From an uncultured Gammaproteobacteria bacterium (lineage in GTDB: Bacteria > Patescibacteriota > Microgenomatia > Levybacterales > UBA12049): a DNA stretch of 64,000 nt. This document shows, one piece after another, positions 7,610 to 63,200 of the stretch. Location of the stretch: NCBI GenBank assembly GCA_964564035.1, contig CAZLZN010000001.1:14845-78844 (forward strand), given 5' to 3'. The position numbers were made by a program, and so were the translations under genes. Within the stretch, counting starts at the first letter, position 1. Every line of letters starts with the position of its first letter. The notes beneath the pieces are model-generated. The model ran no database searches, was not told the origin of the DNA, and worked only from the letters and a program-made list of their open reading frames with translations.

Positions 7610-7678
7610 GTGATTTTCAAATAAAGGGCTGATATTAAATTTTAAATATTAAAATTTGGTAATAAATTAAAAATCCCC

Positions 7679-7713: not shown

Positions 7714-7715
7714 CA

Positions 7716-8284: not shown

Positions 8285-8412
8285 GGATATTATGTGCTTC
8301 TTTTTGAAATTTAAAAATATTAATTTAATATGTTAAATCAAAACTCAAAAACCATAGGAACAAGCGTCTTAACCATAAAAGGCAAAATGGATCTTTAAGC
8401 CTTGATCTAGGT

Positions 8413-8440
8413 TTTGATCTTTGAGATTTGATTTTTGATC
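8413..8440. repeat. Heptamer tandem repeat (TTTGATC)-like x4: TTTGATC TTTGAGA TTTGATT TTTGATC.
   Basis: Read directly; intergenic, upstream of the small-ORF/polymerase operon. The same unit recurs at 15042-15062. Confidence 0.65.
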
Positions 8441-8526
8441 TAATTTAGCTTGACACGCCTGTTCGTCATCTCGCTCATACTAAATGATGTAAATTAATTT
8501 TCTTAGATAAGCTCTGAAGGGGAGGT

Positions 8527-8787
8527 ATGTTAGAAAAAATACATGAAAAAATTGATGTCATTACTATTTACAAGAAATATCCGGCACGGGTCATTCCATA
8601 TAAAATCAGATGGAACGGTAGAGATCATATTATTACGAAAATCGGGTATCATCACAAAATTCGTAAAGGCCATACGTTCTTTCATATCTTTTCTGTCTGC
8701 TCCGATACCTTAGCGTTCCGCCTTCGCTTTGACACAGAAACTATGTACTGGACGCTGGAGGAAGTATCAGATGGATTTACCGATTAG
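8527..8787 (+). CDS. Small hypothetical protein (86 aa) immediately upstream of, and overlapping, the Y-family polymerase gene; possible accessory subunit.
   Basis: ORF with the purine-rich AAGGGGAGG just upstream of the ATG. The 3' end overlaps the polymerase start by 17 nt. No recognised family. Confidence 0.4.
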   Translation: MLEKIHEKIDVITIYKKYPARVIPYKIRWNGRDHIITKIGYHHKIRKGHTFFHIFSVCSDTLAFRLRFDTETMYWTLEEVSDGFTD

Positions 8788-10015
8788 CAAAAATAAACCC
8801 CAAATTATGCATATTGATCTCGATTCTTGCTTCGCAACAATCGAACAACAGGCAAATCCACTCCTCCGGGGGAAGCCCATCGTTGTCGCCGCACACAATG
8901 CTCCCAATGGATGCATTCTGGCATCGTCTATTGAGGCTAAAAGGATGGGAATAAAAACCGGAATGAGAATTAAAGAGTCGCGCTTAATCTATCCCTATAT
9001 AATAATCCGCACGCCTGACCCGGCAAAGTATCGTGACGTTCATGTCAAATTCAAAAAAATTTTTTCGGATTATTCAAACAAGGTTATTCCTAAGTCAATT
9101 GATGAAGCGATAATAGATCTACATGATATAGAACGACTTAACCTTGACTTGGTTAAAATCGGCCGGGAAATAAAACAGCGAATGAAGACGGAAATAGGAG
9201 AATGGATAAGCTGCAGTATAGGAATCTCTACAAATCGATTTCTCGCTAAGCTTGCCGCAACTATCCATAAGCCGGACGGCCTCGATGTTATAACACACAA
9301 AAATCTGGTTGATATCTACAGCAGGATAGAACTTCTGGACCTACACGGAATCAATGTGCGGTACCAGGCGAGACTCAACGCATACGGAATATTCACGCCG
9401 ATGGATTTCCTGCGGGCAGCCTGTGAAACTCTCGAAAAAAAAGTTTTCTTAAGCATCTGCGGCCGGCAGTGGTATGAAAGAATACGTGGATACGAGACTG
9501 ATGACATCGAATTCAAGACCAAAAGCATCGGTCAACAATACGCGCTAAAAAAGCCGACGGCAAATCCTGCGGAACTCGGCCCCATGATGATGAAACTATG
9601 TGAAAAAATGGGAAGAAGACTGCGTCACAAAGGCTATACCGCGCATGGCATCCACGTGAGAATTAATTATAAAGACGGGACGACTTGGCATAGAGGTCGC
9701 ATGACGAATAGTGAGCTGTACACTACAATGGAACTATATAAAGTGGCGCTTCTTATTTTTAACCAGCAACCGGAAATTAAGCAAGCCACACTTCTTGCAG
9801 TAAGCTGTTACAAGCTGGAAGCAAACGTAAAATCCCAAATGTCTTTATTTGACGCTGATCACACAAAACATAGAAAAATGTCTGATGCTATGGATGAGAT
9901 AAATGACCGCTGGGGAGAATTTACCGTAACACCAGGCCTAATGCTCGGGACAGAGAATATTATTCCTGACAGCATTGCCTTCGGTCGCGTTAAAGAACTT
10001 GAAAACTTAGAATAA
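8771..10015 (+). CDS. dinB: Y-family translesion DNA polymerase (DinB/Pol IV-like).
   Basis: MHIDLDSCFATIEQ... matches the Y-family N-terminal DxD motif, and SIDEAIIDL supplies the catalytic D/E. A strong SD (GGAGGAA) sits 7 nt before the ATG at 8771, with an alternative ATG at 8807. Confidence 0.85.
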   Translation: MDLPISKNKPQIMHIDLDSCFATIEQQANPLLRGKPIVVAAHNAPNGCILASSIEAKRMGIKTGMRIKESRLIYPYIIIRTPDPAKYRDVHVKFKKIFSDYSNKVIPKSIDEAIIDLHDIERLNLDLVKIGREIKQRMKTEIGEWISCSIGISTNRFLAKLAATIHKPDGLDVITHKNLVDIYSRIELLDLHGINVRYQARLNAYGIFTPMDFLRAACETLEKKVFLSICGRQWYERIRGYETDDIEFKTKSIGQQYALKKPTANPAELGPMMMKLCEKMGRRLRHKGYTAHGIHVRINYKDGTTWHRGRMTNSELYTTMELYKVALLIFNQQPEIKQATLLAVSCYKLEANVKSQMSLFDADHTKHRKMSDAMDEINDRWGEFTVTPGLMLGTENIIPDSIAFGRVKELENLE

Positions 10016-10031
10016 TTTTTCCACAAATGCA

Positions 10032-10064
10032 CGAACCTGGTTTGTTTTATATTGACAAACAAGG
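10032..10064 (+). repeat. REP-like element copy B (left flank of the RAYT).
   Basis: cgaacctggtttgttttatattgacaaacaagg; an inverted partner lies at 10769-10800. Confidence 0.7.
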
Positions 10065-10096
10065 ACAGAGTGCGTAATACTAAATTATCGCTTAGT

Positions 10097-10768
10097 ATGC
10101 CATATAGAAAAATTCCACTTGTAAAAAATGAAATTTATCATATCTTCAACCGAAGCATTGCAAGACAGCCTATTTTTAAAACACAAATAGATCACAAACG
10201 AATTCTTGAGATTATAAACTTTTATAGACATGATACCAGACCCCTACGATTTTCACATTTTAAAAGGTTACCAATTGACCAAAAAAAAGATATCTTAGAG
10301 GAATATGCAAAGAATCAAAAATATCTCGTAGAAATATATGCATACTGCGTAATGCCAAATCATTTCCACTTCTTATTAAAAGCAACTCAAGACTCCGGAA
10401 TTTCAATTTTCATGAGAAACCTGCAACATAGTTATTCTAATTATTTTAATATAAAAAACAACAGGACAGGATCATTATTTCAGTCCATGTTTAAAGCAAT
10501 CAGAATAGAAACTGACGAGCAGCTTTTCCATGTTTCAAGATATATTCATTTAAATCCGGCAACTTCATTTATCATACCTATTGAAGCTCTTGAAACATAT
10601 CAATGGTCTTCATTTAAAGATTTTATAAACAAAGCAACTGAAAGCATGATCAATAAGCAGTATATTTATGAGAATTTTAAAAGCGTAGGAGAATACAAAA
10701 AGTTTGTGTATGATCAAGCTGATTATCAGCGCGAGTTAGATAAAATAAAGCACCTTATCTTCAAATAA
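10097..10768 (+). CDS. REP-associated tyrosine transposase (RAYT; IS200/IS605-like HUH Y1 transposase).
   Basis: HUH motif YCVMPNHFHFLL and catalytic Tyr motif RYIHLNP. Flanked by inverted REP copies, one of which abuts the stop codon. The ATG at 10097 is preferred over the TTG at 10052, which lies inside REP B. Confidence 0.75.
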   Translation: MPYRKIPLVKNEIYHIFNRSIARQPIFKTQIDHKRILEIINFYRHDTRPLRFSHFKRLPIDQKKDILEEYAKNQKYLVEIYAYCVMPNHFHFLLKATQDSGISIFMRNLQHSYSNYFNIKNNRTGSLFQSMFKAIRIETDEQLFHVSRYIHLNPATSFIIPIEALETYQWSSFKDFINKATESMINKQYIYENFKSVGEYKKFVYDQADYQRELDKIKHLIFK

Positions 10769-19257: not shown

Positions 19258-20748
19258 TCACCACAGCATCACCCAAAACTCCTGCATGACCAAAATTTGC
19301 ATAGCCTGAAAAAATAAGAATACGCAAAATTGGATTCTTGTAAATCTCAGGCTTTTTGTCAAAAAACCGGCTCCGATCAACGCCATAAACGGCATGAATA
19401 CAACCAGTATCCGTCCGCCCTCACCTCTTATCGAACCGGAAAAATTAACAATAATTAGCATCATTAAAAAAGCAATAAAAACAAAATCTAATTTCCTGAT
19501 ATTTTTTAAAAAATTTCTGCCAAAAACATTCAGGCAGAAAAATTTTGTTTCCCGAATGAATTTATAAAAAAATACCATACTCAATGGAATTCCCGCGAAT
19601 ATAAAAAAATCAACCGCGTTATACCAGAGCCACAAACTGTAAGATCTTGAATTAACATGTGTTACTGTCGTCATAATTATTCGCGTCATTTCATAAAAAT
19701 TAAAATTAAAAAACACCAATAATAAAATTGGCAAAAGCAAAAATCCACCCGCAAATACGGAAGAATCAATAAGCAATCTCATCGGCTTCAATTTTAATCC
19801 CAAAAAATTCAGCAAATAAAATATCATGAATAAAACACCGATCGTAAGAAGTGATAAATTAAAAAATACACCAACAAAAAGAGTTAAGCCCGACAAAAAT
19901 AAATAATATTTTTTATTTTCTTTTATACCTTTATAAAAAAACAAAAATGAAGTAATAGAAAAAATCGGCAAAAATGAATCGTTAATTGGAATAAAAAGCA
20001 CGGCGCTTGGGATAAAAATATATATAAAAATTGTTCTCAAAGCGATCTTTACCCCGTATAATGCGCTAGCCGCAAAATATAGAGGAACGACTGTGAAAGA
20101 CGCTAGCATAGGTATAAAAAAAGCAGAAAAAACAGCTCCCGCTTTTTGAGCAGCTTCGAGTGTAACCCAAATAAGCCTTACGTCCGGACGGCTGGGAGAT
20201 AGTTTATCCACATAATCGATAAACGCCGGAAACATCGAAGCGAATAAATTATTAAAATAAAAAAACAATATAGCCCCCGGCGGATGAGACGCCGCGTGAT
20301 AAACAAAGCTAAGAACATTTTCGTTGTATGTGCTTACAAATTCATAAACGTTTTTTATATTCAGTGACGCGGTAAAATACCCGTTCAATTCCGGATTAAT
20401 AATCCTGTGGATCAACACACCTATTCCGGCTCTGCTGAAGTACAAAACTCCCATCTGAAACATATAAGAAATTAGTGCGGCGCAAATTAAAAAAACATAA
20501 ATATGTTTGACGGCAAATTTCTGATGCCGCTCAACAAATAAATACATTCCGAAAATAATAATAGTCACTAAAAGCGGCGCCCATAATTTATTTAATGTAT
20601 TTACAAATAAATAATCCCATTGCCATTCCGGCGGATATGGCGCCGGCCCCCTCAAAAGCGGAAATATATCCCAAGAGACTGATGCAAAAAACCCCGCCGT
20701 CACGACGCTTACCAAAACCAAAAATCTATTTTTAAACCCCTCTGACAT
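19258..20748 (-). CDS. Polytopic integral membrane protein (hypothetical).
   Basis: 496 aa, more than 10 predicted TM segments; no motif assigned. Confidence 0.55.
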   Translation of the reverse strand: MSEGFKNRFLVLVSVVTAGFFASVSWDIFPLLRGPAPYPPEWQWDYLFVNTLNKLWAPLLVTIIIFGMYLFVERHQKFAVKHIYVFLICAALISYMFQMGVLYFSRAGIGVLIHRIINPELNGYFTASLNIKNVYEFVSTYNENVLSFVYHAASHPPGAILFFYFNNLFASMFPAFIDYVDKLSPSRPDVRLIWVTLEAAQKAGAVFSAFFIPMLASFTVVPLYFAASALYGVKIALRTIFIYIFIPSAVLFIPINDSFLPIFSITSFLFFYKGIKENKKYYLFLSGLTLFVGVFFNLSLLTIGVLFMIFYLLNFLGLKLKPMRLLIDSSVFAGGFLLLPILLLVFFNFNFYEMTRIIMTTVTHVNSRSYSLWLWYNAVDFFIFAGIPLSMVFFYKFIRETKFFCLNVFGRNFLKNIRKLDFVFIAFLMMLIIVNFSGSIRGEGGRILVVFMPFMALIGAGFLTKSLRFTRIQFCVFLFFQAMQILVMQEFWVMLW

Positions 20749-23807: not shown

Positions 23808-24563
23808 TTAAATCCTCATCTCTATTTTATTCTTTCTTAGATTATTCTTTACTTCTTTAATCCTAAGCTCTCCAAAATGAAAAAGTGATGCCGCTAGAGC
23901 GGCGTCCGCTTTGCCTGTTGTAAAAACATCCCGAAAATCCGAAAGACTCCCCGCACCACCTGACGCAATTACCGGCACATTCACACGGGATGAAACACTG
24001 GCAGTCAAGCCCAGGTCAAAACCTATTTTTGTACCGTCCCGATCCATACTTGTCAAAAGTATCTCTCCGGCGCCTAGTTTGACAGCATCCCGCGCCCATT
24101 TAACCGCGTCTTTTCCGGCAGAGATACGTCCGCCGTTTACAAACACATCCCACCCGGATCCGGCTTTTTTAGCATCAATCGCGAGTACAACACATTGATT
24201 TCCGAAAATATTTGCCAATTCCGATATGATCCTTGGATTTTTGACAGCAGCCGAATTCACCGCTATCTTATCCGCGCCGTTTTTCAATATACTTCTCGCG
24301 TCATTGACATTGTTTATCCCCCCTCCGACAGTAAACGGGATAAATATTTTTGCCGCAATTTGCTTTACAATATCCAGCATAATATCCCGCCGCTCATGTG
24401 TCGCGGTTATATCCAAAAAAGTAAGCTCATCTGCTCCTTCATTATTATATATCTCGGCAAGCCGCACAGGATCTCCCGCGTCTTTTATATTTACGAAATT
24501 AACCCCTTTGACAACCCTTCCGTCTTTTATATCCAGACATGAAATTATTCTTTTAGCTATCAT
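23808..24563 (-). CDS. hisF: Imidazole glycerol phosphate synthase, cyclase subunit.
   Basis: [20 protein letters not shown]...; ATG at 24563, 2 nt after the hisA stop. Confidence 0.9.
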
Positions 24564-24565
24564 AA

Positions 24566-25273
24566 TCAACTTCTTATCATCTCTTTAATTGAAATCTTAT
24601 TTTCATACAAAGCCTTACCGACTATTACGCCTTCGACTCCTATTGCATCTAACTTTTTTATAGCACTTATACTAGATATTCCGCCCGCTGCAATAATAGG
24701 CACATTTAAATTATCAATAAGTTTTTTAACCTCTTTATAATTCGGAACAGTCAGTGTGCCATCCCTCGTTACATCTGTATAAATAAAACGCATAACGCCG
24801 CTTTCCTCAAGCTCCCGCGCTTTCTTTAACGCGCCGGTATCTGCCTCTTCCTGCCATCCTTTAATAGCTAATTTTCCGTTTTTCGCATCAATCGATACTA
24901 TTATATTGTCCCGATATTTAATTAAAAGTTTTTCAAAAATCGGCTTTTCTATAACCGCCATAGTGCCGATAATTATTCTTTCTATTCCAATTGCGATCAG
25001 CTTATCGGCTGTCTGAATATTATTGATACCGCCCCCGACTTGAATCGGAATTTTGACGGCGTTACGAATTTTTTTAATAACGTCAAAATTTTTAAGAGTG
25101 CTTTTTTCCGCTCCGTCTAAATCAACGATGTGTAAATATTTTGCGCCTTCACTTTCCCATCGCAGGGCAAACTCAACCGGATCATCGCTATACACTTTTA
25201 CATCACTAAATCTACCCTGCGTAAGCCGCACGCATTTACCGTTTTGGATATCTATTGCCGGAAAAATTATCAC
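24566..25273 (-). CDS. hisA: ProFAR isomerase.
   Basis: [17 protein letters not shown]...; 4-nt overlap with hisH. Confidence 0.9.
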
Positions 25274-25908
25274 AATAAATTCTCCTTTCGCTCGACTGCT
25301 ATATCATAAAAATTATTCAACAATTTTAAACCCGTTTCTCCACTTTTTTCAGGATGAAACTGTACTCCATATATATTTTCATACGCGAAGGCACTGCAGA
25401 ATTTTTTCCCATATCTCGTAACTCCGGCAACAACTGCATCGTCAGCCGGCGCGCAGTAATAACTATTCACAAAATAAAAGTGACTATTATTCTCTATATT
25501 TTTAAATAAATTCTGAATTCTGAATTCTGAATTCTGAATTCCGACTTTATTCCATCCAATTTGCGGCACTTTAAATTTTGTTCTAAATTTCTTTACGTTT
25601 CCCTTTATCAAATCCAGACATTCGGTTTCTCCCTCTTCGCTAAATGACATCATAATCTGCATTCCAAGACAGATACCGAGAATTGGAGTTCCGCTCATCA
25701 CTTTCTCGATTATGACTTGGTCCATACCCGTAGACTTCAAATTTTTCATACCGGTACCCGCTGACCCTACGCCGGGCAATATCAGCGCTTCAGACTTTTG
25801 TAATTCTGAAATGCTGTCTGCAATCAAATAAGGTATCCTCAATTTTTTCAGCGCGTTTGCAACACTGGCCAAATTCCCAAGTCCGTAATCAATTATTGTT
25901 AATTTCAT
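25270..25908 (-). CDS. hisH: Imidazole glycerol phosphate synthase, glutaminase subunit.
   Basis: GxGNLxS, GVG and HPEKS motifs. It carries a 28-nt heptamer array in a loop (see the repeat at 25511-25538). Confidence 0.9.
   Translation of the reverse strand: MKLTIIDYGLGNLASVANALKKLRIPYLIADSISELQKSEALILPGVGSAGTGMKNLKSTGMDQVIIEKVMSGTPILGICLGMQIMMSFSEEGETECLDLIKGNVKKFRTKFKVPQIGWNKVGIQNSEFRIQNLFKNIENNSHFYFVNSYYCAPADDAVVAGVTRYGKKFCSAFAYENIYGVQFHPEKSGETGLKLLNNFYDIAVERKENLL
25511..25538. repeat. Intragenic heptamer tandem array (TTCTGAA)x4 inside hisH; it encodes ...IQNSEFRIQN....
   Basis: Four perfect 7-nt units, read directly. They lie in a loop that is about 4 aa longer than in E. coli HisH, by memory alignment. 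Confidence 0.8.
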
Positions 25909-25913
25909 ATAAT

Positions 25914-26789
25914 TTAAATTATCATTTTTTCAATTGGCAACACTATTATCCCTGTCGCGCCGTACTTCTTTAACTTCTCGATCGTTTCCCAAAAAAACTC
26001 TTCTTTGACAACAGTTTGCACAGAAACCCAATCCCGATCGGCAAGCGTTGAAATAGTCGGAGACCTAAGGCCCGGCACTACTCTTTTTATTTTATCTATA
26101 GCATTTTTGGGCACATTCATCATGATATATTTATAATCCCGCGCGCTCAAAACAGCATTAAAACGCATCAATAACCCGTCAAGAATTTTTTTCCTGCCGT
26201 TTACAAAAGAATCTTTATTCGCGATCAAAACCGCCTCGGAATCGTAAACTTTCTCCAATATCCTCAGGTCATTAAGCGCCAAAGTGCTCCCCGTAGAAAC
26301 CAGATCAACAATTGCGTCGGCGATTCCCAGGGCAGGAGTAATCTCCAGAGAACCGCTTATCGCAACTATCTCCACGTCAATTTTATTTTTCTTAAAAAAA
26401 CTTTTTGCGGACACAGGATATGATGTCGCGATTCTTTTCTTATCCAAATCGATAATGCTTTTGTACTTGGACTCTTTCGGAACAGCGGCATACAGTGAGC
26501 AATAACCATAATTTAAATTAAAGATCTTTCTTACATCCGGCCGCTCTTCATTCAAAATGTTTTGTCCGACAATTCCCAGATCAACGGTTCCGGTCGCGAC
26601 ATAATTCGGAATATCATCGTCTCTGACATACAATATTTCAAGCGGAAAATTCCTGCACTTCGAAAATAATTTTTGCTTATAGCTTGTAAATTCGAGCCCT
26701 GATCTTCGCAAAAATTCAAGAGTCTCCTCCGTCAGTCTGCCGCTTTTTTGCACAGCTAATTTTAAATTTTTATTGTTTAAATTTGCCAT
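25914..26789 (-). CDS. hisG: ATP phosphoribosyltransferase, long form.
   Basis: MANLNNKNLKLAVQKSGRL... The ATG at 26789 sits directly after the T-box terminator U-tract. Confidence 0.9.
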   Translation of the reverse strand: MANLNNKNLKLAVQKSGRLTEETLEFLRRSGLEFTSYKQKLFSKCRNFPLEILYVRDDDIPNYVATGTVDLGIVGQNILNEERPDVRKIFNLNYGYCSLYAAVPKESKYKSIIDLDKKRIATSYPVSAKSFFKKNKIDVEIVAISGSLEITPALGIADAIVDLVSTGSTLALNDLRILEKVYDSEAVLIANKDSFVNGRKKILDGLLMRFNAVLSARDYKYIMMNVPKNAIDKIKRVVPGLRSPTISTLADRDWVSVQTVVKEEFFWETIEKLKKYGATGIIVLPIEKMII

Positions 26790-26995
26790 AAAAAAACTCC
26801 CGTCCTTTACAACCAATATCTTTGGTTATAAGGAACGAGAGGTCAAACATTTCTCCCGCGGTCCCATCCTCATTCCCCGATTCCTGTATCTATATCGGGG
26901 CGCTCTATACCGACTCCGCATCTTGTGCGACATCGTCTACCCAATTTTACGGCTGGATTTCCGTGGAGTATTTCGCTCCCAACGCTCTCTTTATT
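26790..26995 (-). promoter_or_regulatory. T-box riboswitch leader of the his operon, probable tRNA-His specifier.
   Basis: On the minus strand: AAGAGAGCG... stem I start; GAGGATGGGACCGCGGGAG matches the T-box sequence AGGGUGGNACCGCG; a CAC is present in the candidate specifier region. A terminator hairpin (CTCGTTCCTT...AAGGACGGGAG) plus U7 directly abuts the hisG ATG. Confidence 0.55.
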
Positions 26996-40811: not shown

Positions 40812-41948
40812 ATGGAAATACGCGAAATTGCTGAGAAAGAAAAAATTGAATTTAACAGAGTCGTCACTCACCCTCTCCAATCCTACGAATGGGGCGAGTT
40901 TCGGCAGGCAACAGGTATCAAAGTAATACGCCGCGGCTTTTATAAAAATAATAAACTTATCAAAGCTTTTACTCTCACAATTCACAAAATCCCCCATACT
41001 CCGTCTACAATCGGCTATTTCCCCAAAGGCGATTTACCCGATACGGATGTAATTCACGAATTAATTAAGATAGGAAAAACGGAAAAATGCATCTTCATCC
41101 AACTCGAACCAAATATCATTAAAAAAAACGTGTCAAAAACTAATATTGTAAATTATGAAAATGAAAATTTAAATTTCATTGAAAATTGTAAATTGAAAAT
41201 TGAAAATTTAACAATTACACCTGCTGCCCATCCCCTCTTTACCAAATATACTTTTGTTCTGGATCTTACAAAAACAGAAGAAGAACTCCTCAAAAATATG
41301 CATTCCAAGGCGCGCTACAACATCAAAGTTGCCAAAAAACACGGCGTCGAGGTTACTGAGAATAACTCAGATAAAGCATTTGAAAACTACCTGAAGCTAA
41401 TGAGTGAAACAACCGCACGCCAAAAATTTTACGCACATACCGAAAATTATCACCGAGTTTTATGGAAAACTTTAAAATGTCATCCCGAATTTATTTCGGG
41501 ATCTTCTAATGACAAGATGCTGAAACAAGTTCAGCATGACAAAACTGGCAAGGAAACCAATAAATTAACAACCCATCTTCTCACTGCCAAATATCAAGAC
41601 AAGATATTAACCGCCTGGATGCTATTTGTTTTTAAAGATTCGCTATATTATCCATATGGCGCCTCAAGCAGTGAAAACCGTGAAGTAATGTCAAGCAGTC
41701 TGATGATGTGGGAAGCAATCAGATTCGGCAAAAAATTAGGACTTAAAAAATTCGACATGTGGGGCGCGCTCGGCCCTGATCCCGACCCCAAAGATCCCTG
41801 GTTTGGCTTTCACAATTTTAAACAAAAATACAGCCCGGACCATGTCGAATTTATCGGAAGCTATGATCTGATCATAAATCCGGCTTTATATCAACTTTAC
41901 AAATTAACCGATAAACTGAGATGGATATATCTAAAATTTAGAAAATAA
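40812..41948 (+). CDS. FemAB-family peptidoglycan aminoacyltransferase (Lipid II / tRNA-dependent cross-bridge formation), by inference.
   Basis: HPLQSYEWGEF..., KARYNIKVAKKHGV and a C-terminal coiled region typical of FemAB/FemX. It carries an in-frame AT-rich heptamer insertion at 41179-41206. Confidence 0.6.
   Translation: MEIREIAEKEKIEFNRVVTHPLQSYEWGEFRQATGIKVIRRGFYKNNKLIKAFTLTIHKIPHTPSTIGYFPKGDLPDTDVIHELIKIGKTEKCIFIQLEPNIIKKNVSKTNIVNYENENLNFIENCKLKIENLTITPAAHPLFTKYTFVLDLTKTEEELLKNMHSKARYNIKVAKKHGVEVTENNSDKAFENYLKLMSETTARQKFYAHTENYHRVLWKTLKCHPEFISGSSNDKMLKQVQHDKTGKETNKLTTHLLTAKYQDKILTAWMLFVFKDSLYYPYGASSSENREVMSSSLMMWEAIRFGKKLGLKKFDMWGALGPDPDPKDPWFGFHNFKQKYSPDHVEFIGSYDLIINPALYQLYKLTDKLRWIYLKFRK
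41179..41206. repeat. Intragenic heptamer tandem array (ATTGAAA ATTGTAA ATTGAAA ATTGAAA) inside the FemAB-like gene; it encodes ...IENCKLKIENL....
   Basis: Read directly. This is the same unit as the intergenic arrays at 2942 and 12440. Confidence 0.75.
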
Positions 41949-42037: not shown

Positions 42038-42610
42038 CTATGGGGAATTTTTATTTATAGTTTTGATCTTTGCACTTTGATCTTTGATCTTTTCTGGTAC
42101 TTCGTACATATAAAACTCGTTCTTCAAATCCTGCTTCACAATCGGCAGATCAATTTTATATACAAAAGTCACAATCTTCGTACCCGGTTTCAGCTCTTTA
42201 AGAAGTTTCGGCTTCAACTTCGCAAGAGTTTTAGGAATAAGATACATAAATACAACTGTCGCATCTCCGATCTCCGACTGGAAAAAATTCTGCCTTTTGA
42301 TCTTTACCTTGTATCCAACGTTATTAATAAATACCATCAATTTTGAAATAAAGTACCTCAGAGGATCAATTTCAATTCCCACCGCTCGCGCGCCGAATTT
42401 CTTCGCAGCCGTAATCAATAGAGTGGAATCCCCGGATCCCAGATCATATATGACATCTTTTTTGGAGATATTTACAAACTTACAAATCAACCGGCTTCGA
42501 GCCCCATTGGTTCTCCACCAGGGAGACCATGGGCTATCAGGCGGCCATACCATTGAGAGCAGGAACAGAAGCAGAGTGACTGTAACTAATATCAGAACCG
42601 ACTCGACCAT
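42038..42610 (-). CDS. Class I SAM-dependent methyltransferase with an N-terminal TM anchor.
   Basis: VIYDLGSGDSTLLI (motif I) and the context AVGIEIDP; it overlaps sodX by 19 nt. Confidence 0.6.
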   Translation of the reverse strand: MVESVLILVTVTLLLFLLSMVWPPDSPWSPWWRTNGARSRLICKFVNISKKDVIYDLGSGDSTLLITAAKKFGARAVGIEIDPLRYFISKLMVFINNVGYKVKIKRQNFFQSEIGDATVVFMYLIPKTLAKLKPKLLKELKPGTKIVTFVYKIDLPIVKQDLKNEFYMYEVPEKIKDQSAKIKTINKNSP

Positions 42611-43014
42611 ATTACTTTTCCTATTATACTCCCTCTGTCGAGATAACCAAAGTACCTGCTGTCGGTACTCATATTTTTATTATCCCCCTCAACAAAATAT
42701 TTACTGCTTTCAATTCCGGTAATTCTTTTAATAAGCACCCTCCCGCCCCTCGGATCTCTAACTGCAACTATATCGCCCTGCTCAGGCTTATCAAAAATAT
42801 ATACTATTCTGCTCACTATAAGCAGATCGCCTTGATTAATAATAGGCTTCATGCTATTGCCATGGATTTTGAAAAATAAAATTGGTGAAAATTTATTAAA
42901 TAACTGAATTAAAGAAGAATATATTTTGAATTTTGAGCTGTAGTTTTGACTGTTGACTTTTGAATTTTTACTTTCTTTATTACTTCGCGGCTTTCGTTGC
43001 TTTAAAAATTTCAT
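42592..43014 (-). CDS. sodX: S26-family signal-peptidase-like protease; predicted NiSOD maturation peptidase SodX.
   Basis: GNSMKP (catalytic Ser) and GDNKNMSTDSRYFG (S26 box E-like). It lies immediately downstream of, and overlapping, sodN. Confidence 0.7.
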   Translation of the reverse strand: MKFLKQRKPRSNKESKNSKVNSQNYSSKFKIYSSLIQLFNKFSPILFFKIHGNSMKPIINQGDLLIVSRIVYIFDKPEQGDIVAVRDPRGGRVLIKRITGIESSKYFVEGDNKNMSTDSRYFGYLDRGSIIGKVIWSSRF

Positions 43015-43393
43015 CGATCTCCTGAATTAATTTCAATAATTCCTCTGCATCCGCCGGGTTTGTTGATTTCTTAGTTTGTCCTGCCGCTTTTGTCGCCTTC
43101 CAAAAAAGATCATGCAGATTTGGATATTTCTCTAAATGCTCAGCCTTGAAATAATCGGTCCACAAAACCCACAAATGATGTTTACAAAGCTCTGCCCGTT
43201 CTTCTTTGATAATAATTGCCCGAGTCTTGAAATGCACATCATCGGATTCATTATATTTTTTTATCGTGTTAAGAATACTTTGTGCTTCAATTCGAGCCTG
43301 GACCGGATCATAAACCCCGCATGGGAGATCGCAGTGTGCATAAGCTGCTTGGACAGGGAGTAGCTGAAATAATTTCTTGATCAAAACTTTCAT
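42980..43393 (-). CDS. sodN: Nickel-containing superoxide dismutase precursor (NiSOD).
   Basis: Leader MKVLIKKLFQLLPVQAAYA, followed by the Ni-hook HCDLPCGVYDP that defines mature NiSOD. The ATG at 43393 is preferred over the longer TTG-containing ORF, and gives a precursor of about 137 aa. Confidence 0.85.
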   Translation of the reverse strand: MKVLIKKLFQLLPVQAAYAHCDLPCGVYDPVQARIEAQSILNTIKKYNESDDVHFKTRAIIIKEERAELCKHHLWVLWTDYFKAEHLEKYPNLHDLFWKATKAAGQTKKSTNPADAEELLKLIQEIDEIFKATKAAK

Positions 43394-43508
43394 CTCATTA
43401 ATGATAGTATCCGTACGCAAAAAAATCAAGATAGGAATCAGTAAGAAAAGCCTTCTTCTTACAGCAATATTACTAAATATCCTAAAACCGTCGGGTATAA
43501 TTAACGTT

Positions 43509-43901
43509 ATGGAAATGCATCTGAAGATAGCGTCAGTTATCGCCAATCTCCTGGACAACAGTTTTGAGATTTTCGGCAGACGCTTCGGGATAAACGGCCT
43601 GCTCGGATTACTGCCCGGCTTAGGAGACCTGATTCCCGCCCTGTTATCACTTTACCTGGTCTGGGTCGGAACCAAAATGAATCTCCCCAAAACCGAAATA
43701 GCCCGCATGCTTGGCAATATTGGATTTAATTTCTTCGTCGGCCTGATTCCGCTGGTCGGAGATTACATCGATTTTTTCAATCACGCTAATATGAAAAACC
43801 TGGCGATACTGCGCAAATATTCTCAAGATAAAATTATAGACGGGGAAATAATTGAGTCTGAGAATTTGACAAATAAATCAAATAATATTACTGTCAAATA
43901 G
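43509..43901 (+). CDS. Small membrane protein, DUF4112-like.
   Basis: FGINGLLGLLPGLGDLIPALLSLYLV pattern. The internal start at 43509 is preferred, because the ORF's 43377 start would overlap the sodN 5' end. Confidence 0.45.
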   Translation: MEMHLKIASVIANLLDNSFEIFGRRFGINGLLGLLPGLGDLIPALLSLYLVWVGTKMNLPKTEIARMLGNIGFNFFVGLIPLVGDYIDFFNHANMKNLAILRKYSQDKIIDGEIIESENLTNKSNNITVK

Positions 43902-45447: not shown

Positions 45448-46218
45448 TTAATATTTCGGCATCTCCACCTCAAGCCACGGAGCGTTTTCTTTTTTAATTC
45501 TGTCAAATATTTCTTGTGCTTTTGTGGGATCTTTTCCAAAAATTTGAACCGCCCTAAATACTTCTGAAACCCTATTCAAATTTGAAATATTTTGTTCTCT
45601 TAATACCTGTTGCCAATTCCCACTTTCATTTTTCGACAAATAACCAAGATCACCAATTATAAAGTTATAACTTCCATCCGGTTTAATTACCGCAAACCAT
45701 GCATCGGTAGGGATTAATAAATCAGCATTTGCGGCCTTCATAGCTAATTTTTGAATAATTTCTTTTTCCAGCTCCGAATCCATGGGTACAGCGTTTGCGA
45801 AATTATCCATTAGTTCCCGATTTTCGGCATAAATACTACTCATTGTTTTTCTGTCATATAACAAATCCGTTTCCGAAAATACTATATTTATCCCATTTTC
45901 TGACAAATCGCTTATAAGCAGATCCCTACCGTCTTCGGTAGATCTGAATGTTGTAGGAACAGGTAAGCCTGCCTTTTTAGCATTATTATAATTTTCTAAT
46001 TCATACCTATTCCCCAGTTGCTCTGACCGCCTGGCTCGATAAACAAAATTAAGCATCCGGCTCCGCTGATTTTTACTCCATCTAATAGTAGCGCCAAATA
46101 TTTCAGCCTCTGCACCTTCACCAATTTTATCTCTTAATTTAATTTCTAATTGTTTCCCTGATTTAGTGAATAATATGGGAGGATTTTTTATTTCTGACCT
46201 ATCTTCTAAAAGAGGCAT
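45448..46218 (-). CDS. Protein-kinase-like fold protein (atypical; RIO/Bud32/Kdo-kinase-like).
   Basis: Gly-rich loop IGEGAEAEIF, catalytic-loop-like LISDLSENGINIV, and the DFG-like IIGDLGY. Confidence 0.45.
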   Translation of the reverse strand: MPLLEDRSEIKNPPILFTKSGKQLEIKLRDKIGEGAEAEIFGATIRWSKNQRSRMLNFVYRARRSEQLGNRYELENYNNAKKAGLPVPTTFRSTEDGRDLLISDLSENGINIVFSETDLLYDRKTMSSIYAENRELMDNFANAVPMDSELEKEIIQKLAMKAANADLLIPTDAWFAVIKPDGSYNFIIGDLGYLSKNESGNWQQVLREQNISNLNRVSEVFRAVQIFGKDPTKAQEIFDRIKKENAPWLEVEMPKY

Positions 46219-48474: not shown

Positions 48475-50790
48475 TTGACATATATAAAACATTTATGTTA
48501 TCAAATATATAGAGTGGAAAATAATACTCAAAACAAAGACAAACAACCGTCAGTCATATCTACCTCCGGATCGCGCAAAAAACTATTTATTTTAGCAGGA
48601 CTTGTTGTAATTATATTAATAATTTTAGGTTTTGTTTTCTTTAGCAATACCGGTATAAATAATAACAGCGCTAAAAACCAAGCCCAAAACTCCCCCTCAA
48701 ATACGATAGAACAAAACCGGACCAACAACAACACCAATACCCAGGTAAACAATCAAAATAAATTAATACCCGATCTGATCTATGGTGTATGGAGCGGAGA
48801 AAATTCAGTTATCAAAAGCTACAATTTCGCGTCGGGAGATACCCGTATACTGGCAAACCTGCCTCAGGATATTAAAAAAGTGAGCATTTTATCACCAAGC
48901 TCACTCATATATATAGATAAAACCAACGACCGCGATCATGGCTCCACAATATCAATGTACAATACGCAGACCAAACAAAGCCGTATCATATATACTGCTT
49001 CAGCCGGATATGGAATTGATGATTATGTTCTCTCACAAAATAAAAAATATATTTCTACCTGGGAAGTTGCGTTTGCCCCGAACTCGTCAGTTATGGCCGG
49101 CGGCAAATCTAGACTATTTGTCATAAATATAGATCAGCCGGACATAAAAAATATGCTTTACGACGAAACAGCAGACAAACCGGTACATTACCCGAGGATG
49201 GTTATGAATAATGGAAATGTTCTCGCGGATACATTCATGCCCAATGATCCTATCGGTGGAACAGGATGGGCATACGGCATGAGTCTTGCAAGTTTTGACG
49301 GTAAACAAAAAAAAGACCTTGATACCATGAAAGCCGGAACATACGGCACCCAGCCTGAACCGACTCTTGACGGTAATTATCTGGTTTTTGCGGGATATGA
49401 CGGCAAAAACGGCCCTGGAGAAGCTGTCGTAAATGGATTCAGACAATCGATCCTGACGCCGAACACAATAGAGCTTCTTGATACTAAGACATTTACCCGC
49501 AGTAAAATAGCGCTATTTAACAATGAAGACATTTATAGTACAGCCGGTGTGGATAAAGCTTCAGGACAAATTTTGGTTACTGCTATTTCAAAAAATCTAA
49601 ACGATATGGGCCTGTACCGTTATGACCTATCTAAACAAACCAAAACCAAAGTTGACTTGGATGCGACCAATATTACCGGACTCACGCTGGTTTCCCTCAT
49701 ACCGGACAATCAACTACTCTTGGCAAGCACTCAGGATTCAAATGTATCAATCAGTAATCTTGGTGAAAACTATGCACCAAACCTTTTACAACTTTATAAA
49801 TTTGCAGATGGCAAAACGGAAGTACTCAAACTTCCCGATACCATTATGCAATTTATAACATTTTTACCTATCGATAATGATCTCGTACTGGGGAGTAACG
49901 ACCGGAAAGTATTATCGGAGACTGCAGCTCCAACAAGTATTATTTATTTTGATGAAAAATCAAACAAAAATAAAGAAAGCCTTCAGCTTCACAGTTTCTT
50001 TGTAAAATTAAATCTTGGCCAAAGCAGACTAAGTCAGCAATCGGATAATACTGAAGTGGATGAAGCAACTAGAAAATTATTCGGTGATGACCGGCAAACC
50101 GGAACCAGATGCAGAGACTTAGCGGCCGCCCAATGTTCATCACAAGGATACCAGCCGGACACGACGGAATTCAAGCAATGCCAAATTAGAACCATGGTAA
50201 CAATTAAAACATCGTCGATGAACAATGGCGGAGGTTCATCTGCTGTTTGCTACGACTCACCCCTGTATCTATATGGACCCAAAGGACAACAGGTGCAAGT
50301 AAACATCAATACTCCTGTTTATAATAGCTTCCCTGAATACAAAAACGGTTACAATATAACTTTAGACAACAACAACTTACAAATAAATGGTAAATCATAC
50401 GAAAGTATAAAATATGATTATATTCCGCAAACCTTGGTTAAGCCTGATATGTCATCCGGAAGAATAGTTACCGCTGAGAAAGTAAAAGATGTGCTCGAAG
50501 ATTATTCAAACAAACTAGGATTAAATGAAAAAGAGACCCAGGATCTATTATTTTATGCGGCACAAAAAATCACCAAACCCTTCGTCTTCGTATCCTTCTA
50601 TCCTCATGAAATATCATCCAAAATTCTTCCTATTTCTTTCATGCCGCAACCCGACAATTACCTGAACATTATTTTCTACTTCAAGCAGTTCGATAAATAT
50701 CCGTTTATAAGCGTATCTGATCCGGTATTCCCGCCGCCTCTGGACCGCACCGGCTTCACCGCCGTTGAAATTAGTGGAGTTGTTGAATAA
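48475..50790 (+). CDS. Large membrane-anchored or secreted protein, possibly beta-propeller-like (hypothetical).
   Basis: N-terminal TM/signal anchor, an Asn/Thr/Gln-rich linker, and a long beta-rich body. Confidence 0.5.
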   Translation: MTYIKHLCYQIYRVENNTQNKDKQPSVISTSGSRKKLFILAGLVVIILIILGFVFFSNTGINNNSAKNQAQNSPSNTIEQNRTNNNTNTQVNNQNKLIPDLIYGVWSGENSVIKSYNFASGDTRILANLPQDIKKVSILSPSSLIYIDKTNDRDHGSTISMYNTQTKQSRIIYTASAGYGIDDYVLSQNKKYISTWEVAFAPNSSVMAGGKSRLFVINIDQPDIKNMLYDETADKPVHYPRMVMNNGNVLADTFMPNDPIGGTGWAYGMSLASFDGKQKKDLDTMKAGTYGTQPEPTLDGNYLVFAGYDGKNGPGEAVVNGFRQSILTPNTIELLDTKTFTRSKIALFNNEDIYSTAGVDKASGQILVTAISKNLNDMGLYRYDLSKQTKTKVDLDATNITGLTLVSLIPDNQLLLASTQDSNVSISNLGENYAPNLLQLYKFADGKTEVLKLPDTIMQFITFLPIDNDLVLGSNDRKVLSETAAPTSIIYFDEKSNKNKESLQLHSFFVKLNLGQSRLSQQSDNTEVDEATRKLFGDDRQTGTRCRDLAAAQCSSQGYQPDTTEFKQCQIRTMVTIKTSSMNNGGGSSAVCYDSPLYLYGPKGQQVQVNINTPVYNSFPEYKNGYNITLDNNNLQINGKSYESIKYDYIPQTLVKPDMSSGRIVTAEKVKDVLEDYSNKLGLNEKETQDLLFYAAQKITKPFVFVSFYPHEISSKILPISFMPQPDNYLNIIFYFKQFDKYPFISVSDPVFPPPLDRTGFTAVEISGVVE

Positions 50791-56411: not shown

Positions 56412-56918
56412 ATGGATCAGCAGACAGCTCAAAATAAAAAACTCGTTATCGGTTGGTTCTCGTTTACCTGCTGTGAAGACAGTACAATTCTCCTCACCGA
56501 ACTCCTCAATGACAATTTACTCGAATGGAAAAAACTGGTCGAGTTTAGACACCTCAAAGCACTCAAAACAAAAAACTCAATGGAAGGACTTGATGTCGCT
56601 TTTATCGAAGGCGCGGTTTCATCAGATTCCCAGGCGGAAGAGGTCAAAAAAATCAGAAACAATGCCAAATATGTAGTCGCGATCGGCTCCTGTGCCTGCA
56701 CAGGGATGCCCTCAGCGTCCAGAAACGCCTTTGTCAGCGAGCAAATAAACGACAAAATCAAATGGTATATGAGCCAGTTCAGCTATAGCGACAAAGTCCG
56801 CAAGCTCGAAGAGGTCATAACTGTCGACGACAAAGTCCAGGGCTGCCCCATGAGCGCATCATCTTTTATCGAAACTTTGACGAAATACTTAAAGCAATTT
56901 AATATAATAGCGGTTTAA
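56412..56918 (+). CDS. [NiFe]-hydrogenase small subunit, proximal-cluster-only, group-3-like.
   Basis: FTCCEDS, GSCACTG and QGCP cysteine motifs; 168 aa. Confidence 0.75.
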   Translation: MDQQTAQNKKLVIGWFSFTCCEDSTILLTELLNDNLLEWKKLVEFRHLKALKTKNSMEGLDVAFIEGAVSSDSQAEEVKKIRNNAKYVVAIGSCACTGMPSASRNAFVSEQINDKIKWYMSQFSYSDKVRKLEEVITVDDKVQGCPMSASSFIETLTKYLKQFNIIAV

Positions 56919-56960: not shown

Positions 56961-58265
56961 ATGCACAGCGCCGATATAACAATCGAAAATATAACCAAAA
57001 TAGAAGGTAACGCCAGCTTGAAAGTAACGATCGAAAACGATTCTGTAAAACAACTTCAGTTTATAATCTCGGACTACCGCCGCTTCTACACAACAGCAGT
57101 CAAAGGCAAACCATTCATGACAGTCCCTTCATTCCTGTCCAGAATCTGCGGCACCTGCTCGGTAGCGCATTTATTTGCCTCAATAAAAGCTATAGAGCGG
57201 TCTCAGGGCATCGAAGTCTCCGAACAGACCAAGCTTCTCCGCGCCTTAGCGTATGACGGCCTTATGATCCGCGATCATGCACTGCATTTATACTTCTTCG
57301 TTTTACCCGATATTCTCGGAATTGATTCAATCCTCGACATTCCGGACGATGACAACAATCCCGGCCATATTCTTCTTCACGATTCCTTTGACATAAAACG
57401 CCTTGGCACAGATATCACAAACGTGATTATAGGAGCCGCGATCCACGCGCCCTTCCCGACGATCGGAGGATTCCTCAAAAACCCCGATCCATCCAAATTC
57501 CCCGAACTGATCCAAAGACTTGAAGCCATCCGGCCGCAGGTACTTCGCGGCATTAAAACCTTCTATGACTGGAACGCGTCATTGATTCGCAATTCCAACT
57601 ACTTAGGGCTTCGCAGTGAAAAAAAATTCGACTTTCTGGAAGGCGACGTATTCAATTCCAACGGCAGACTTATCGCGCAAAATGATTTCAAGAATTATCT
57701 CAGGTACGTCCAAATTCCCTATTCACAAGCTGAGGGTTATGAATTCTCCGACACACAAAAAGACTACCTTGCCGGCTCATTAGCGAGAATAAACCTCAAT
57801 AAAGACCTCCTTCACGAACGTACCAAAAAAGATGCAGCCGAGTATATCGCGGCTTTCCCCTCTAACAATATCTATCACAATAATCTCGCACAGGCAATAG
57901 AAATACTTCACTGCGTAGATGAAGCAATAGATATCTTGAAAACGATCCAAATATCACCCGATGAAAAACCCGTTCGCAAACCTCCTCAGGCAGGCGTTGG
58001 CGTCGGACTTGTCGAAGCTCCAAGAGGCATACTATATCATATGGCCAAAGTAAACGACAAAGGACTGATCGAAGACTACGACGTGATCGTACCTACAGCC
58101 CAAAACCAAATTCAAATAGAAAACGATCTCAAAGAATATTTCAACAGAAATTTAAATAAACCGGAAGAAGAACTCAGACTGGATGCTGAGAAAATTATCA
58201 GAGCCTACGACCCCTGCATGTCCTGCGCCACCAATTTCCTCAAAATCGACTGGATACGCAAATAA
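56961..58265 (+). CDS. [NiFe]-hydrogenase large subunit (group 3 type).
   Basis: L1 RICGTCSVAH and L2 DPCMSCATN motifs; 434 aa. Confidence 0.85.
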   Translation: MHSADITIENITKIEGNASLKVTIENDSVKQLQFIISDYRRFYTTAVKGKPFMTVPSFLSRICGTCSVAHLFASIKAIERSQGIEVSEQTKLLRALAYDGLMIRDHALHLYFFVLPDILGIDSILDIPDDDNNPGHILLHDSFDIKRLGTDITNVIIGAAIHAPFPTIGGFLKNPDPSKFPELIQRLEAIRPQVLRGIKTFYDWNASLIRNSNYLGLRSEKKFDFLEGDVFNSNGRLIAQNDFKNYLRYVQIPYSQAEGYEFSDTQKDYLAGSLARINLNKDLLHERTKKDAAEYIAAFPSNNIYHNNLAQAIEILHCVDEAIDILKTIQISPDEKPVRKPPQAGVGVGLVEAPRGILYHMAKVNDKGLIEDYDVIVPTAQNQIQIENDLKEYFNRNLNKPEEELRLDAEKIIRAYDPCMSCATNFLKIDWIRK

Positions 58266-61049: not shown

Positions 61050-61140
61050 TTCCCAACTATTTCTCTTTAAGTATACAGAACATACATCTACAAAATCAAT
61101 ACAGCTATTGACATAAATTTTTATTTAATATAAAGTTATT

Positions 61141-61286
61141 ACTAATCAAGAGTGATGGGGAGAGAATTGGCTCAACGATCCATCCGGCAACCCCGCTAAG
61201 CGGGGTGCCAAACCCAAACCCGTGAGGGAAGGATTAGCTCCGATTATTTCGGGGAAACATCTTACCCCGCTCGGCGGGGTTTTTTT
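61141..61286 (+). promoter_or_regulatory. SAM-I (S-box) riboswitch with an intrinsic terminator.
   Basis: cTAATCAAGAG...GGGGAGAG...GGCAACC...GGTGCCAAACCC...GGATTAG matches SAM-I conserved blocks (AUCAAGAG, GGCAACC, GGUGCUAAAUCC, P1 closure). A terminator CCCCGC-tcg-GCGGGG plus U7 ends 1 nt before the metF ATG. A TTGACA -35 lies at 61108. Confidence 0.8.
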
Positions 61287-62240
61287 ATGGACAAATCAAA
61301 TTCATTATCTTTTAAAATAAGAAACAAGCGCCCATGCGTCTTGTTTGAACTGGTTCCTCCGCCGGCAGAATACAAAAAAAACATAATCAATGAGTCTCTC
61401 GCGTCTCTCACCCAAATTTTGACCCGCACATCAGTCGACGGCATAAATATTCCGGAAGTAATTGATGAACATCGAAACGGTGAGAGGGTGAATAAAATTC
61501 CCGACAAGCTCGAGCCTCGAATATTAGCAAAGTATCTGCACGGCCTGGGCTTAGACAATATAATAATTAACCGGCCCGTAGTTTATTCCCCCTGGGATCT
61601 TCAAATGAAATGGCTCAAAGAAACATATTCCAAATTCAAAATTAAAAACTTTGTTCTGGTAGGCGGCGAATCATCCGGCACCGAATATCCCGGATATTCG
61701 GTAAACAAAACAGCGCTGGAAATTTCCGTGTCCCAAAAAGATCTCTTTCCTGACATTCTTCTTGGCGGCATTACGATACCGGGTAGAAAAAATGAAGCTG
61801 ACAGATTATATAAAAAAACACAAAACGGAATTAACTTTTTCACGACGCAAATAATTTATGATTCAAGATCCATAACAAAACTGCTCGCCGCTTACTGGAA
61901 AATATGCATTGCAAAAAAAGAAAAACCCAAAATGATATTTCTCAGCTTCGCGCCTGTAATCACAAAAAAAGACATTGAGCTTCTGCTATGGTTGGGAGTT
62001 AAAATTCCGCAATCCACTTTGAAACAGCTGAAAAATGGCTGGCTCGGCGTCGGACACAGATCAACCAAAATCTGCATAGATATTCTAAAAGATATCTTTT
62101 CGTTTATAAAAAAATATGATATAAGTATACCTGTCGGCCTGAATATAGGTTATGTCAACAGAAATAACTTTGAATTTTCACTTGAATTTCTGGATAAATT
62201 AAGTCAGGTCTATCTGAAAGAAATAAAAAATAATAAATAA
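61287..62240 (+). CDS. metF: Methylenetetrahydrofolate reductase-like protein.
   Basis: MTHFR-family pattern (VLFELVPPP...). It is under a SAM riboswitch and upstream of metE. Confidence 0.65.
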   Translation: MDKSNSLSFKIRNKRPCVLFELVPPPAEYKKNIINESLASLTQILTRTSVDGINIPEVIDEHRNGERVNKIPDKLEPRILAKYLHGLGLDNIIINRPVVYSPWDLQMKWLKETYSKFKIKNFVLVGGESSGTEYPGYSVNKTALEISVSQKDLFPDILLGGITIPGRKNEADRLYKKTQNGINFFTTQIIYDSRSITKLLAAYWKICIAKKEKPKMIFLSFAPVITKKDIELLLWLGVKIPQSTLKQLKNGWLGVGHRSTKICIDILKDIFSFIKKYDISIPVGLNIGYVNRNNFEFSLEFLDKLSQVYLKEIKNNK

Positions 62241-62243: not shown

Positions 62244-63200
62244 ATGGCAACCGTAAAAACATACATACATGGCATTTACCCGCGCTCAAATGACCTGATC
62301 CAGACTAGCAGAGAACTGATCCGCAAAAAGAAAAAAGAATCGGATTATCTGTCTCAGCTAAAAAAAGATTTTTTAAATTTGCAGCAAATTCAAAAATCTA
62401 ATAATTTCGATTACATAGAAGACGGAAAATTGAATTGGCACGACATATTCCGGCCTATCGTCGAATCAGCTTCAGGTTTCAAAATCGGCGCGCTGACCAG
62501 ATGGTTTGACAACAATTGTTTTTTCAGGCAACCCGTCGCGGCAGGCAAATTAAAACTCGACAAAAATAAACTGGATAAATTATTTCCAAGAATTACGCCT
62601 GAAAAAAAATGGAAAGTTACGCTTCCTTCCCCTTTTACTTTCGCGCGCCTAACCCTGAACGAAACTGGTACTTCATTTGAAAATCTGCTTGATCAAATTA
62701 CTGAAATAATCTCGGAAATTATCAGCTACCTTGATAAAAAAGGGGTAAATTTTGTACAGCTGAATGAACCCTTCCTGCCCTATCAAGGTGTGAGCAATCA
62801 GGATATTACTTTATTCAACAAAATGATCAAAAAACTTGAATCAAAAAAAGGCAAACTCGCAATCGCTTTGCATCTATACTTTGGTGATGCCGGACCTGTT
62901 TTAAAAAAACTCGACAAAAATAAATTCATAGATATCATCGGGATAGATTTTTACAAAACAGCCCTCACCTCTATCCCCAAAAATTTTGACTATGCACTGG
63001 CCGCGGGCATAGTCGACGGCAGGAACTCACTTATCGAAGACCAAAAAACGCTGAAAAAATTTATAAACGACGCGGTAGAGCACCTCAAGCTCGAGGAGAT
63101 TTATATTACAAACAACTCCGACTTGGACTTGTTGCCCGAAACGATAGCATCCAAAAAAATTGAAATACTCTCAGGTATAAAAAACTTATACAATAAATAA
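62244..63200 (+). CDS. MetE N-terminal-like (non-catalytic UroD/MetE-fold) domain protein.
   Basis: Degenerate MetE-like blocks (VQLNEPFLPY compared with IQIDEPA). Adjacent to the catalytic metE domain gene. Confidence 0.45.
   Translation: MATVKTYIHGIYPRSNDLIQTSRELIRKKKKESDYLSQLKKDFLNLQQIQKSNNFDYIEDGKLNWHDIFRPIVESASGFKIGALTRWFDNNCFFRQPVAAGKLKLDKNKLDKLFPRITPEKKWKVTLPSPFTFARLTLNETGTSFENLLDQITEIISEIISYLDKKGVNFVQLNEPFLPYQGVSNQDITLFNKMIKKLESKKGKLAIALHLYFGDAGPVLKKLDKNKFIDIIGIDFYKTALTSIPKNFDYALAAGIVDGRNSLIEDQKTLKKFINDAVEHLKLEEIYITNNSDLDLLPETIASKKIEILSGIKNLYNK

Follow-up and report, generated by a model that had tools for sequence, protein, structure and literature searches.

Nickel superoxide dismutase (NiSOD) is described in the literature as a cytoplasmic enzyme, and a survey of 15,899 isolate genomes found its gene, sodN, in eight phyla, the candidate phyla radiation (CPR) not among them (PMC8346466). 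Literature searches on NiSOD in the CPR yielded little: sodN appeared solely in the list of superoxide dismutase (SOD) genes screened in groundwater Patescibacteria, a study in which SOD genes, sodN counted among them, were more frequent in Patescibacteria metagenome-assembled genomes (MAGs) from oxic wells. Here we describe a locus in a 64,000-nt stretch of contig CAZLZN010000001.1 (“the window” below), where three overlapping minus-strand genes encode a NiSOD precursor (SodN), an S26-family protease that would mature it (SodX) and an S-adenosylmethionine (SAM) methyltransferase with a predicted membrane anchor. Judging from its sequence, this is probably a canonical cytoplasmic NiSOD system in the genome of a Levybacteria-like CPR bacterium, encoded by an old and largely vertically inherited operon that has the methyltransferase gene as a neighbour.

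The first of the three open reading frames (ORFs) encodes a genuine NiSOD precursor, and nickel binding and superoxide dismutation are predicted for it. The protein exceeds the thresholds of both family models, with 149.8 bits for Pfam Sod_Ni (PF09055; threshold 25) and 153.8 bits for TIGR02753 (threshold 90), and its residues 20–136 align with residues 1–117 of the mature Streptomyces NiSOD 1Q0D with 0 gaps (E 1.6e-39, 57% identity). The Ni-hook HCDLPCGVY, residues 20–28, falls on 1Q0D residues 1–9 with His1, Cys2, Cys6 and Tyr9 in place. Because this gap-free alignment puts residue 20 at 1Q0D residue 1, the leader, MKVLIKKLFQLLPVQAAYA, is exactly 19 residues long; it is followed directly by HCDLPCGVYDP. 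The leader ends in Ala-Tyr-Ala, so that positions −3 and −1 are both Ala. Among 135 relatives position −1 is Ala except in four sequences of the subtype called type B below, and −3 is occupied by Ala, Val or Ile. An earlier note on this DNA, made from its letters, had read the locus as sodN with a 19-residue leader and a Ni-hook, overlapped by sodX and then by a methyltransferase gene, and had proposed profile searches and an alignment to Streptomyces SodN as checks. Both have now been run and agree with it: Sod_Ni matched SodN and Peptidase_S26 matched SodX (78.1 bits), HCDLPCG lies on the Ni-hook positions at mature residue 1 with the His1/Cys2/Cys6 spacing kept, and all three overlapping ORFs are present on the minus strand where the note had placed them.

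SodX is a soluble S26-type NiSOD maturation protease, predicted to cut the SodN leader. It passes the dedicated profile TIGR02754 (sod_Ni_protease; 73.7 bits, cut-off 63.25), covering profile positions 2–90 of 90, i.e., end to end, and its Ser motif (GNSMKP), its Lys motif (IKRITG) and the stretch GDNKNMSTDSR align to the signal peptidase 4ME8; the sequence holds both GNSMKP and GDNKNMSTDSRYFG. The pairing of NiSOD with its own S26 peptidase, which the earlier note had proposed, is correct. The generic model for signal peptidase I, TIGR02227, is passed as well, at 80.8 bits and slightly above the score on the SodX model; despite this we set SodX apart from housekeeping signal peptidases, because it has no membrane anchor (maximum 19-residue hydropathy 0.98). 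That generic score, taken with the basic N-terminus and the A-x-A site of the leader, would suit an exported NiSOD that has a Sec signal peptide for a leader and SodX for a signal peptidase, but we hold this to be very improbable, since the hydropathy of the leader reaches at most 0.94, far under transmembrane or signal grade, SodX is unanchored, the 90-residue SodX model is covered over its full length, and NiSOD is given as cytoplasmic in the literature. SodN as a whole has no transmembrane-grade hydrophobic segment, and export was rejected on the hydropathy of the leader and of SodX. SodX begins with a low-complexity N-terminal extension of 48 residues rich in Lys, Ser and Asn, and no alternative canonical start codon was found in the ORF downstream of the called start.

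By analogy with Streptomyces, pre-SodN would be made with its leader, and soluble SodX, translationally coupled to it through the overlap of the two genes, would cut after Ala-Tyr-Ala. His1 would thereby be exposed, and its free amine, Cys2 and Cys6 would build the Ni-hook. Superoxide would then be dismutated by the mature four-helix protein of 117–118 residues, which may give the cell a small means, independent of iron, of coping with oxygen. The exposure to oxygen that the earlier note had suggested is a reasonable possibility, in line with the higher frequency of SOD genes in Patescibacteria MAGs from oxic groundwater. The methyltransferase would be co-transcribed, with its catalytic domain facing the cytoplasm, and its substrate would most likely be a membrane-proximal or general cytoplasmic protein.

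The overlaps in the sequence, 35 nt between sodN and sodX and 19 nt between sodX and the methyltransferase gene, suggest translational coupling within a single transcription unit (features are listed in Table 1). A FemAB-family gene is convergent with the methyltransferase gene, and the GC-rich hairpin that lies between both, of which the window holds no second copy, probably marks the end of the unit; because no canonical U-tract follows the hairpin, it is a putative terminator only. The weak promoter match in front of sodN is a mere candidate, because sigma-70-like matches in the sodN region are as numerous as expected by chance. Upstream of sodN and divergent from it is a gene for a DUF4112 membrane protein. 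As called, it begins so near to the start codon of sodN (43393), a few bases away, that no intergenic space is left for a promoter; a later start (MEMHLK…, about 43509) would free about 115 nt before sodN. The DUF4112 gene adjoins sodN in near-identical contigs only.

Table 1. Features of the NiSOD locus and of other parts of the window (positions in the 64,000-nt stretch).
Feature	Position	Strand	Details
sodN (NiSOD precursor)	42980..43393	minus	137 aa ORF
SodN leader MKVLIKKLFQLLPVQAAYA	43337-43393	minus	codons 1-19
SodN Ni-hook HCDLPCGVY	43310-43336	minus	codons 20-28
sodX (S26-family NiSOD maturation protease)	42592..43014	minus	140 aa ORF
aKMT-like seven-beta-strand SAM methyltransferase	42038..42610	minus	190 aa ORF
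GC-rich hairpin across methyltransferase stop codon	41981..42045	minus	minimum free energy -31.3 kcal/mol, z-score -3.1 vs shuffles
Weak sigma-70-like promoter match	43401..43429	minus	TTGATT, 17-nt spacer, TATCAT; end 8 nt from sodN ATG
FemAB-family gene	40812-41948		convergent with methyltransferase gene
DUF4112 membrane-protein gene	43377-43901	plus	divergent from sodN
[NiFe] hydrogenase small subunit, group-3b-like	56412-56918	plus	best model sulfhydrogenase delta
[NiFe] hydrogenase large subunit, group-3b-like	56961-58265	plus	best model sulfhydrogenase alpha
SAM riboswitch	61140-61239	plus	55.2 bits
ORF, weakly MetF/homocysteine-methyltransferase-like	61287-62240		downstream of riboswitch
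ORF, short cobalamin-independent methionine-synthase-like	62244-63200		downstream of riboswitch
HisF-HisA-HisH-HisG cluster	23808-26816	minus	histidine biosynthesis
Damage-response cluster	6825-10768		SRAP peptidase, S24 LexA-like protein, Y-family polymerase (IMS), IS200-like Y1 transposase homologue

The DnaK protein encoded in the window has relatives that are 80–100% identical, and those with names are mostly Candidatus Levybacteria, Levyibacteriota or “Patescibacteria group”. The window also encodes a sortase, FemAB, LytR, PMT-type glycosyltransferases and the subunits of a group-3b-like [NiFe] hydrogenase, a gene set in keeping with a Microgenomates-group CPR bacterium. The sodN-sodX-methyltransferase slot is bounded by an RNase H gene on one side and the FemAB gene on the other, and the same gene order is found in the Levyibacteriota locus L010 and in locus L012. 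The CPR-like character that had been suspected of this organism thus finds support in its DnaK relatives and in the synteny of the locus with a Levyibacteriota genome.

The exact SodN is present on 14 assembled contigs, flanked by the same genes, and it has more than 8000 homologues. Close ones are named, for instance, [quoted passage not shown], or carry names of other Patescibacteria. The best 80 species-representative matches come from Acidimicrobiales, Actinomarina, Saccharimonadales, Levyibacteriota, Spechtbacterales and other Patescibacteria; 16 of these 80 are labelled Patescibacteria, and 3 more with odd labels (2 Gammaproteobacteria, 1 Chlamydiae) group there. Metagenome loci retrieved with the methyltransferase alone (L087–L166, 46–72% identity) number 80, and 71 of them have enough upstream DNA to be informative; sodN-sodX is directly upstream of the methyltransferase gene on the same strand in 64 of the 71, and a convergent FemAB gene is downstream of it in 64 of the 80. 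Because of these two counts we regard the sodN-sodX operon as one that a large CPR lineage carries as standard, at a fixed chromosomal position, and with this many homologues, Patescibacteria among the best of them, the view that NiSOD is unexpected in such an organism does not hold. Several of the related contigs originate from the groundwater site of the SOD-gene study cited above. The records of the loci L007 and L012 (GTDB contigs CAZJRC010000131.1 and CAZJVI010000007.1) and of L080 (CAJCIR010000046.1) bear the titles “uncultured Gammaproteobacteria” and “Chlamydiae bacterium”. L007 and L012 carry the sodN-sodX-methyltransferase trio, and L012 also shares CPR-type ClpB, RNase H and FemAB neighbours. 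In L080 the sodN-sodX pair resembles that of Saccharibacteria. For these three, either the taxon labels or the binning look wrong.

The earlier note had also raised a possible horizontal acquisition. NiSOD is patchy across phyla, published phylogenies infer horizontal transfers of it, and the closest species-representative matches to the window SodN mix Actinomycetota and Patescibacteria, all of which would agree with a recent arrival of the whole cassette in this genome. However, the insertion site, gene order and flanks recur in dozens of diverged relatives, the GC content of the sodN region (0.39) shows no anomaly against that of the window (about 0.40), and among the window ORFs no mobile-element genes flank the cassette. 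The motif LPxQxAYA is common to the leaders of methyltransferase-linked SodNs and is not in actinobacterial or Saccharibacteria leaders, and the methyltransferase-linked SodX proteins form a clade of their own, apart from actinobacterial SodX; because leader motif and SodX clade are lineage-specific in this way, a recent import is unlikely, and on all these points together we think it quite improbable. The operon would instead be old, largely vertically kept in the lineage, and fixed between the RNase H and FemAB genes, with an older exchange of the sodN mature domain as a possible event in its history.

Such an exchange is brought up by the two NiSOD subtypes found at this one syntenic position across related CPR contigs, with the leader motif in common and a single SodX clade. 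Type A, with the hook HCDLPCGVYDP, includes the window SodN, all Actinomycetota matches and all Saccharibacteria matches; type B has the hook HCD[IV]PCGIYDP, and many of its members are extended by about 25 aa at the C-terminus and carry an insertion within the chain. TIGR02753 is passed by type A and type B alike. The mature window SodN is 75–78% identical to SodN of Acidimicrobiales and Actinomarina, and 42–49% identical to type B proteins of close relatives; in locus L087, for example, the methyltransferase is 72% and the RNase H 60% identical to that of the window, and the SodN (type B) 42%. These values could mean that a type A mature domain, like those of Actinomycetota and Saccharibacteria, was acquired horizontally and took the place of a resident type B domain in situ, with retention of the local leader, sodX and the methyltransferase gene. 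That types A and B are two deep clades, that the SodX proteins of type A and type B loci cluster together apart from actinobacterial SodX, and that type A loci fall almost all within one methyltransferase subclade speak for this replacement as well. On the other hand, type A is slow-evolving everywhere (57–78% identity across phyla), so that constraint may be what keeps its identity high, and type B may have evolved rapidly from it; in addition, the shared leader motif is equally consistent with vertical descent, L090-like sequences look intermediate, and a compositional signal is absent. The trees, built by neighbour-joining from 90–150 columns of short proteins and midpoint-rooted with no support values, fit both readings, in-situ exchange or derivation of type B from a constrained type A. 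We consider the replacement possible, but would put it forward only tentatively.

The third gene encodes a homologue of the protein-lysine methyltransferase aKMT with a predicted N-terminal membrane helix, and methylation activity is predicted for it. It has one strongly hydrophobic N-terminal segment (Kyte-Doolittle 19-residue mean 2.56), and its best solved relatives are aKMT 5FA8 (E 5.3e-23) and the Salinibacter structural-genomics protein 5BXY. Because it scores 91.9 bits on the aKMT equivalog model NF041081, under the cut-off of 200 bits, we call it an aKMT homologue and not an equivalog. An AlphaFold model made with 25 homologues (pLDDT 86.9) has a helix at residues 2–21, an ill-defined linker and a seven-beta-strand domain, and Foldseek with this model finds 5BXY and aKMT 5FAD at target-normalised TM-scores of 0.81–0.89. 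In the family alignment the hydrophobic helix is followed by the invariant WPPDSPWSPWWRT and then by the nearly invariant SAM-binding motif DLGSGD. FAM173B (ATPSc-KMT), a mitochondrial relative of aKMT, consists of a membrane segment, a conserved stretch before the methyltransferase domain, and that domain itself (PMC9006661); the helix and WPPDSPWSPWWRT of the window protein resemble this layout as compared by literature description and not by alignment. The earlier view of this gene as one for a membrane-anchored SAM methyltransferase outside the described sodN/sodX system is supported. Identity as PrmA (L11 methyltransferase) was rejected, the scores being 25–28 bits against cut-offs above 180.

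No paper linking sodX with a methyltransferase was found in the literature, and the linkage appears to be undescribed. The gap between sodX and the methyltransferase gene is mostly −72 to +100 nt, with both SodN subtypes and at methyltransferase identities down to 46%, and a junction this tight and widespread fits a functional link. The methyltransferase might, for instance, be a lineage-specific third NiSOD component acting at the membrane, where methylation of SodN, of SodX or of a partner in nickel delivery would tune maturation, stability or localisation. The fixed order of overlapping or near-abutting genes in 64/71 loci, the overlap with sodX in the window itself, and the fact that aKMT-type enzymes methylate protein lysines would all be in keeping with such a role. 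The methyltransferase is, however, retained at loci that have no sodN-sodX: in L088, L107, L109, L113, L114, L141 and L158 it is kept together with FemAB, and the upstream DNA (at least 900 nt) holds other genes. Conversely, it is absent from the sodN loci of Saccharibacteria, Actinomycetota and Chloroflexia. A screen for lysines conserved in methyltransferase-linked SodNs only found none, the conserved ones (mature positions 44, 64, 83 and 115) being universal. Unlike the membrane-anchored methyltransferase, SodN and SodX are soluble proteins, and the operon is not always intact: genes on the opposite strand separate sodX from the methyltransferase gene in L100 and L103, and sodN from sodX in L010. 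Adjacency is, moreover, weak evidence of function in this lineage, because synteny is equally strong for the convergent FemAB gene. Weighing these points, we find a role as third component rather unlikely, and the methyltransferase is probably a co-transcribed, conserved operon neighbour more than an obligatory NiSOD maturation factor. The inserted genes of L010, L100 and L103 were also considered as nickel-related accessories and rejected, as they are unrelated opposite-strand genes. A broader proposal, that Microgenomates-type CPR bacteria have a three-component NiSOD system in which a membrane-anchored, aKMT/FAM173-like lysine methyltransferase modifies SodN, SodX or a nickel partner and couples maturation or placement to the membrane, together with a swap of mature domains between subtypes within the fixed operon, seems doubtful to us.

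The canonical NiSOD system with the methyltransferase as a neighbour is thus the reading that we prefer, although some observations weigh against it. These are the slightly higher score of SodX on the generic signal peptidase model, the neighbour-joining trees of short proteins with their lack of support values, the tight sodX-methyltransferase junction, and the nickel supply: among the about 55 ORFs of the window, searched with Pfam and NCBIfam, no nickel importer or Ni-responsive regulator was recognised. The same contig encodes a second nickel enzyme, the oxygen-sensitive [NiFe] hydrogenase, and the cell must therefore acquire nickel anyway.

A Levybacteria-like CPR bacterium with a complete and apparently functional NiSOD system, as predicted here, would refine the published distribution of NiSOD over eight phyla (PMC8346466), but NiSOD in the CPR is no discovery in itself, because it is already annotated in public MAGs. 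NiSOD beside an oxygen-sensitive [NiFe] hydrogenase fits the picture of CPR cells that live by fermentation, withstand exposure to oxygen and supply both enzymes with a single imported metal. The methyltransferase neighbour and the slot with two SodN subtypes are modest, testable leads; the recurrent sodN-sodX-methyltransferase order in particular offers a cheap test towards the substrate of an uncharacterised bacterial branch of the aKMT/FAM173 family.

Elsewhere in the window, a SAM riboswitch lies upstream of two ORFs with likeness to methionine-pathway enzymes, and a histidine biosynthesis cluster is present in a genome of the CPR type, which is usually called biosynthetically poor (Table 1). 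The damage-response cluster ends with an IS200-like Y1 transposase homologue. The ORFs 45448-46218 (minus), 48475-50790 (plus), 4986-6752 (plus) and 19258-20748 (minus), 256–771 aa long, have no convincing Pfam or NCBIfam match, ORF 48475-50790 having two sub-threshold NCBIfam matches only; the ORF of 256 aa is kept beside ClpB in near-identical contigs with the same SodN.

Among known systems, the methyltransferase is closest in its catalytic domain to aKMT of Sulfolobus islandicus (5FA8/5FAD), with which it shares the small seven-beta-strand SAM fold (target-normalised TM-score 0.81 to 5FAD); it differs from aKMT in its membrane anchor and in its sub-threshold NF041081 score. FAM173B/ATPSc-KMT and FAM173A/ANT-KMT are the eukaryotic relatives of aKMT, and the likeness to the FAM173B layout rests on the description in PMC9006661. 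SodN resembles the NiSOD of Streptomyces coelicolor and S. seoulensis (1Q0D/1T6U) in the Ni-hook residues His1, Cys2, Cys6 and Tyr9, in mature length and at 57% identity, and as in Streptomyces it has a cleavable leader ending in a small residue-x-Ala and is paired with an S26 protease gene. It differs from the Streptomyces system in the leader motif LPxQxAYA and in the methyltransferase gene that follows sodX, and no Nur-type regulator was seen in the window. In the retrieved loci of Actinomycetota the sodX homologue precedes sodN closely and is encoded on the other strand, whereas here sodX is downstream, on the same strand and overlapping. The order sodN then sodX, co-directional in a CPR genome, is that of Saccharibacteria and other Patescibacteria, whose SodN proteins, annotated as “superoxide dismutase, Ni” in NCBI and JGI, are 66–72% identical to that of the window; these operons differ in that they have no methyltransferase gene within 5 kb, a shorter leader (…FIKPVYA) and a separate SodX clade.

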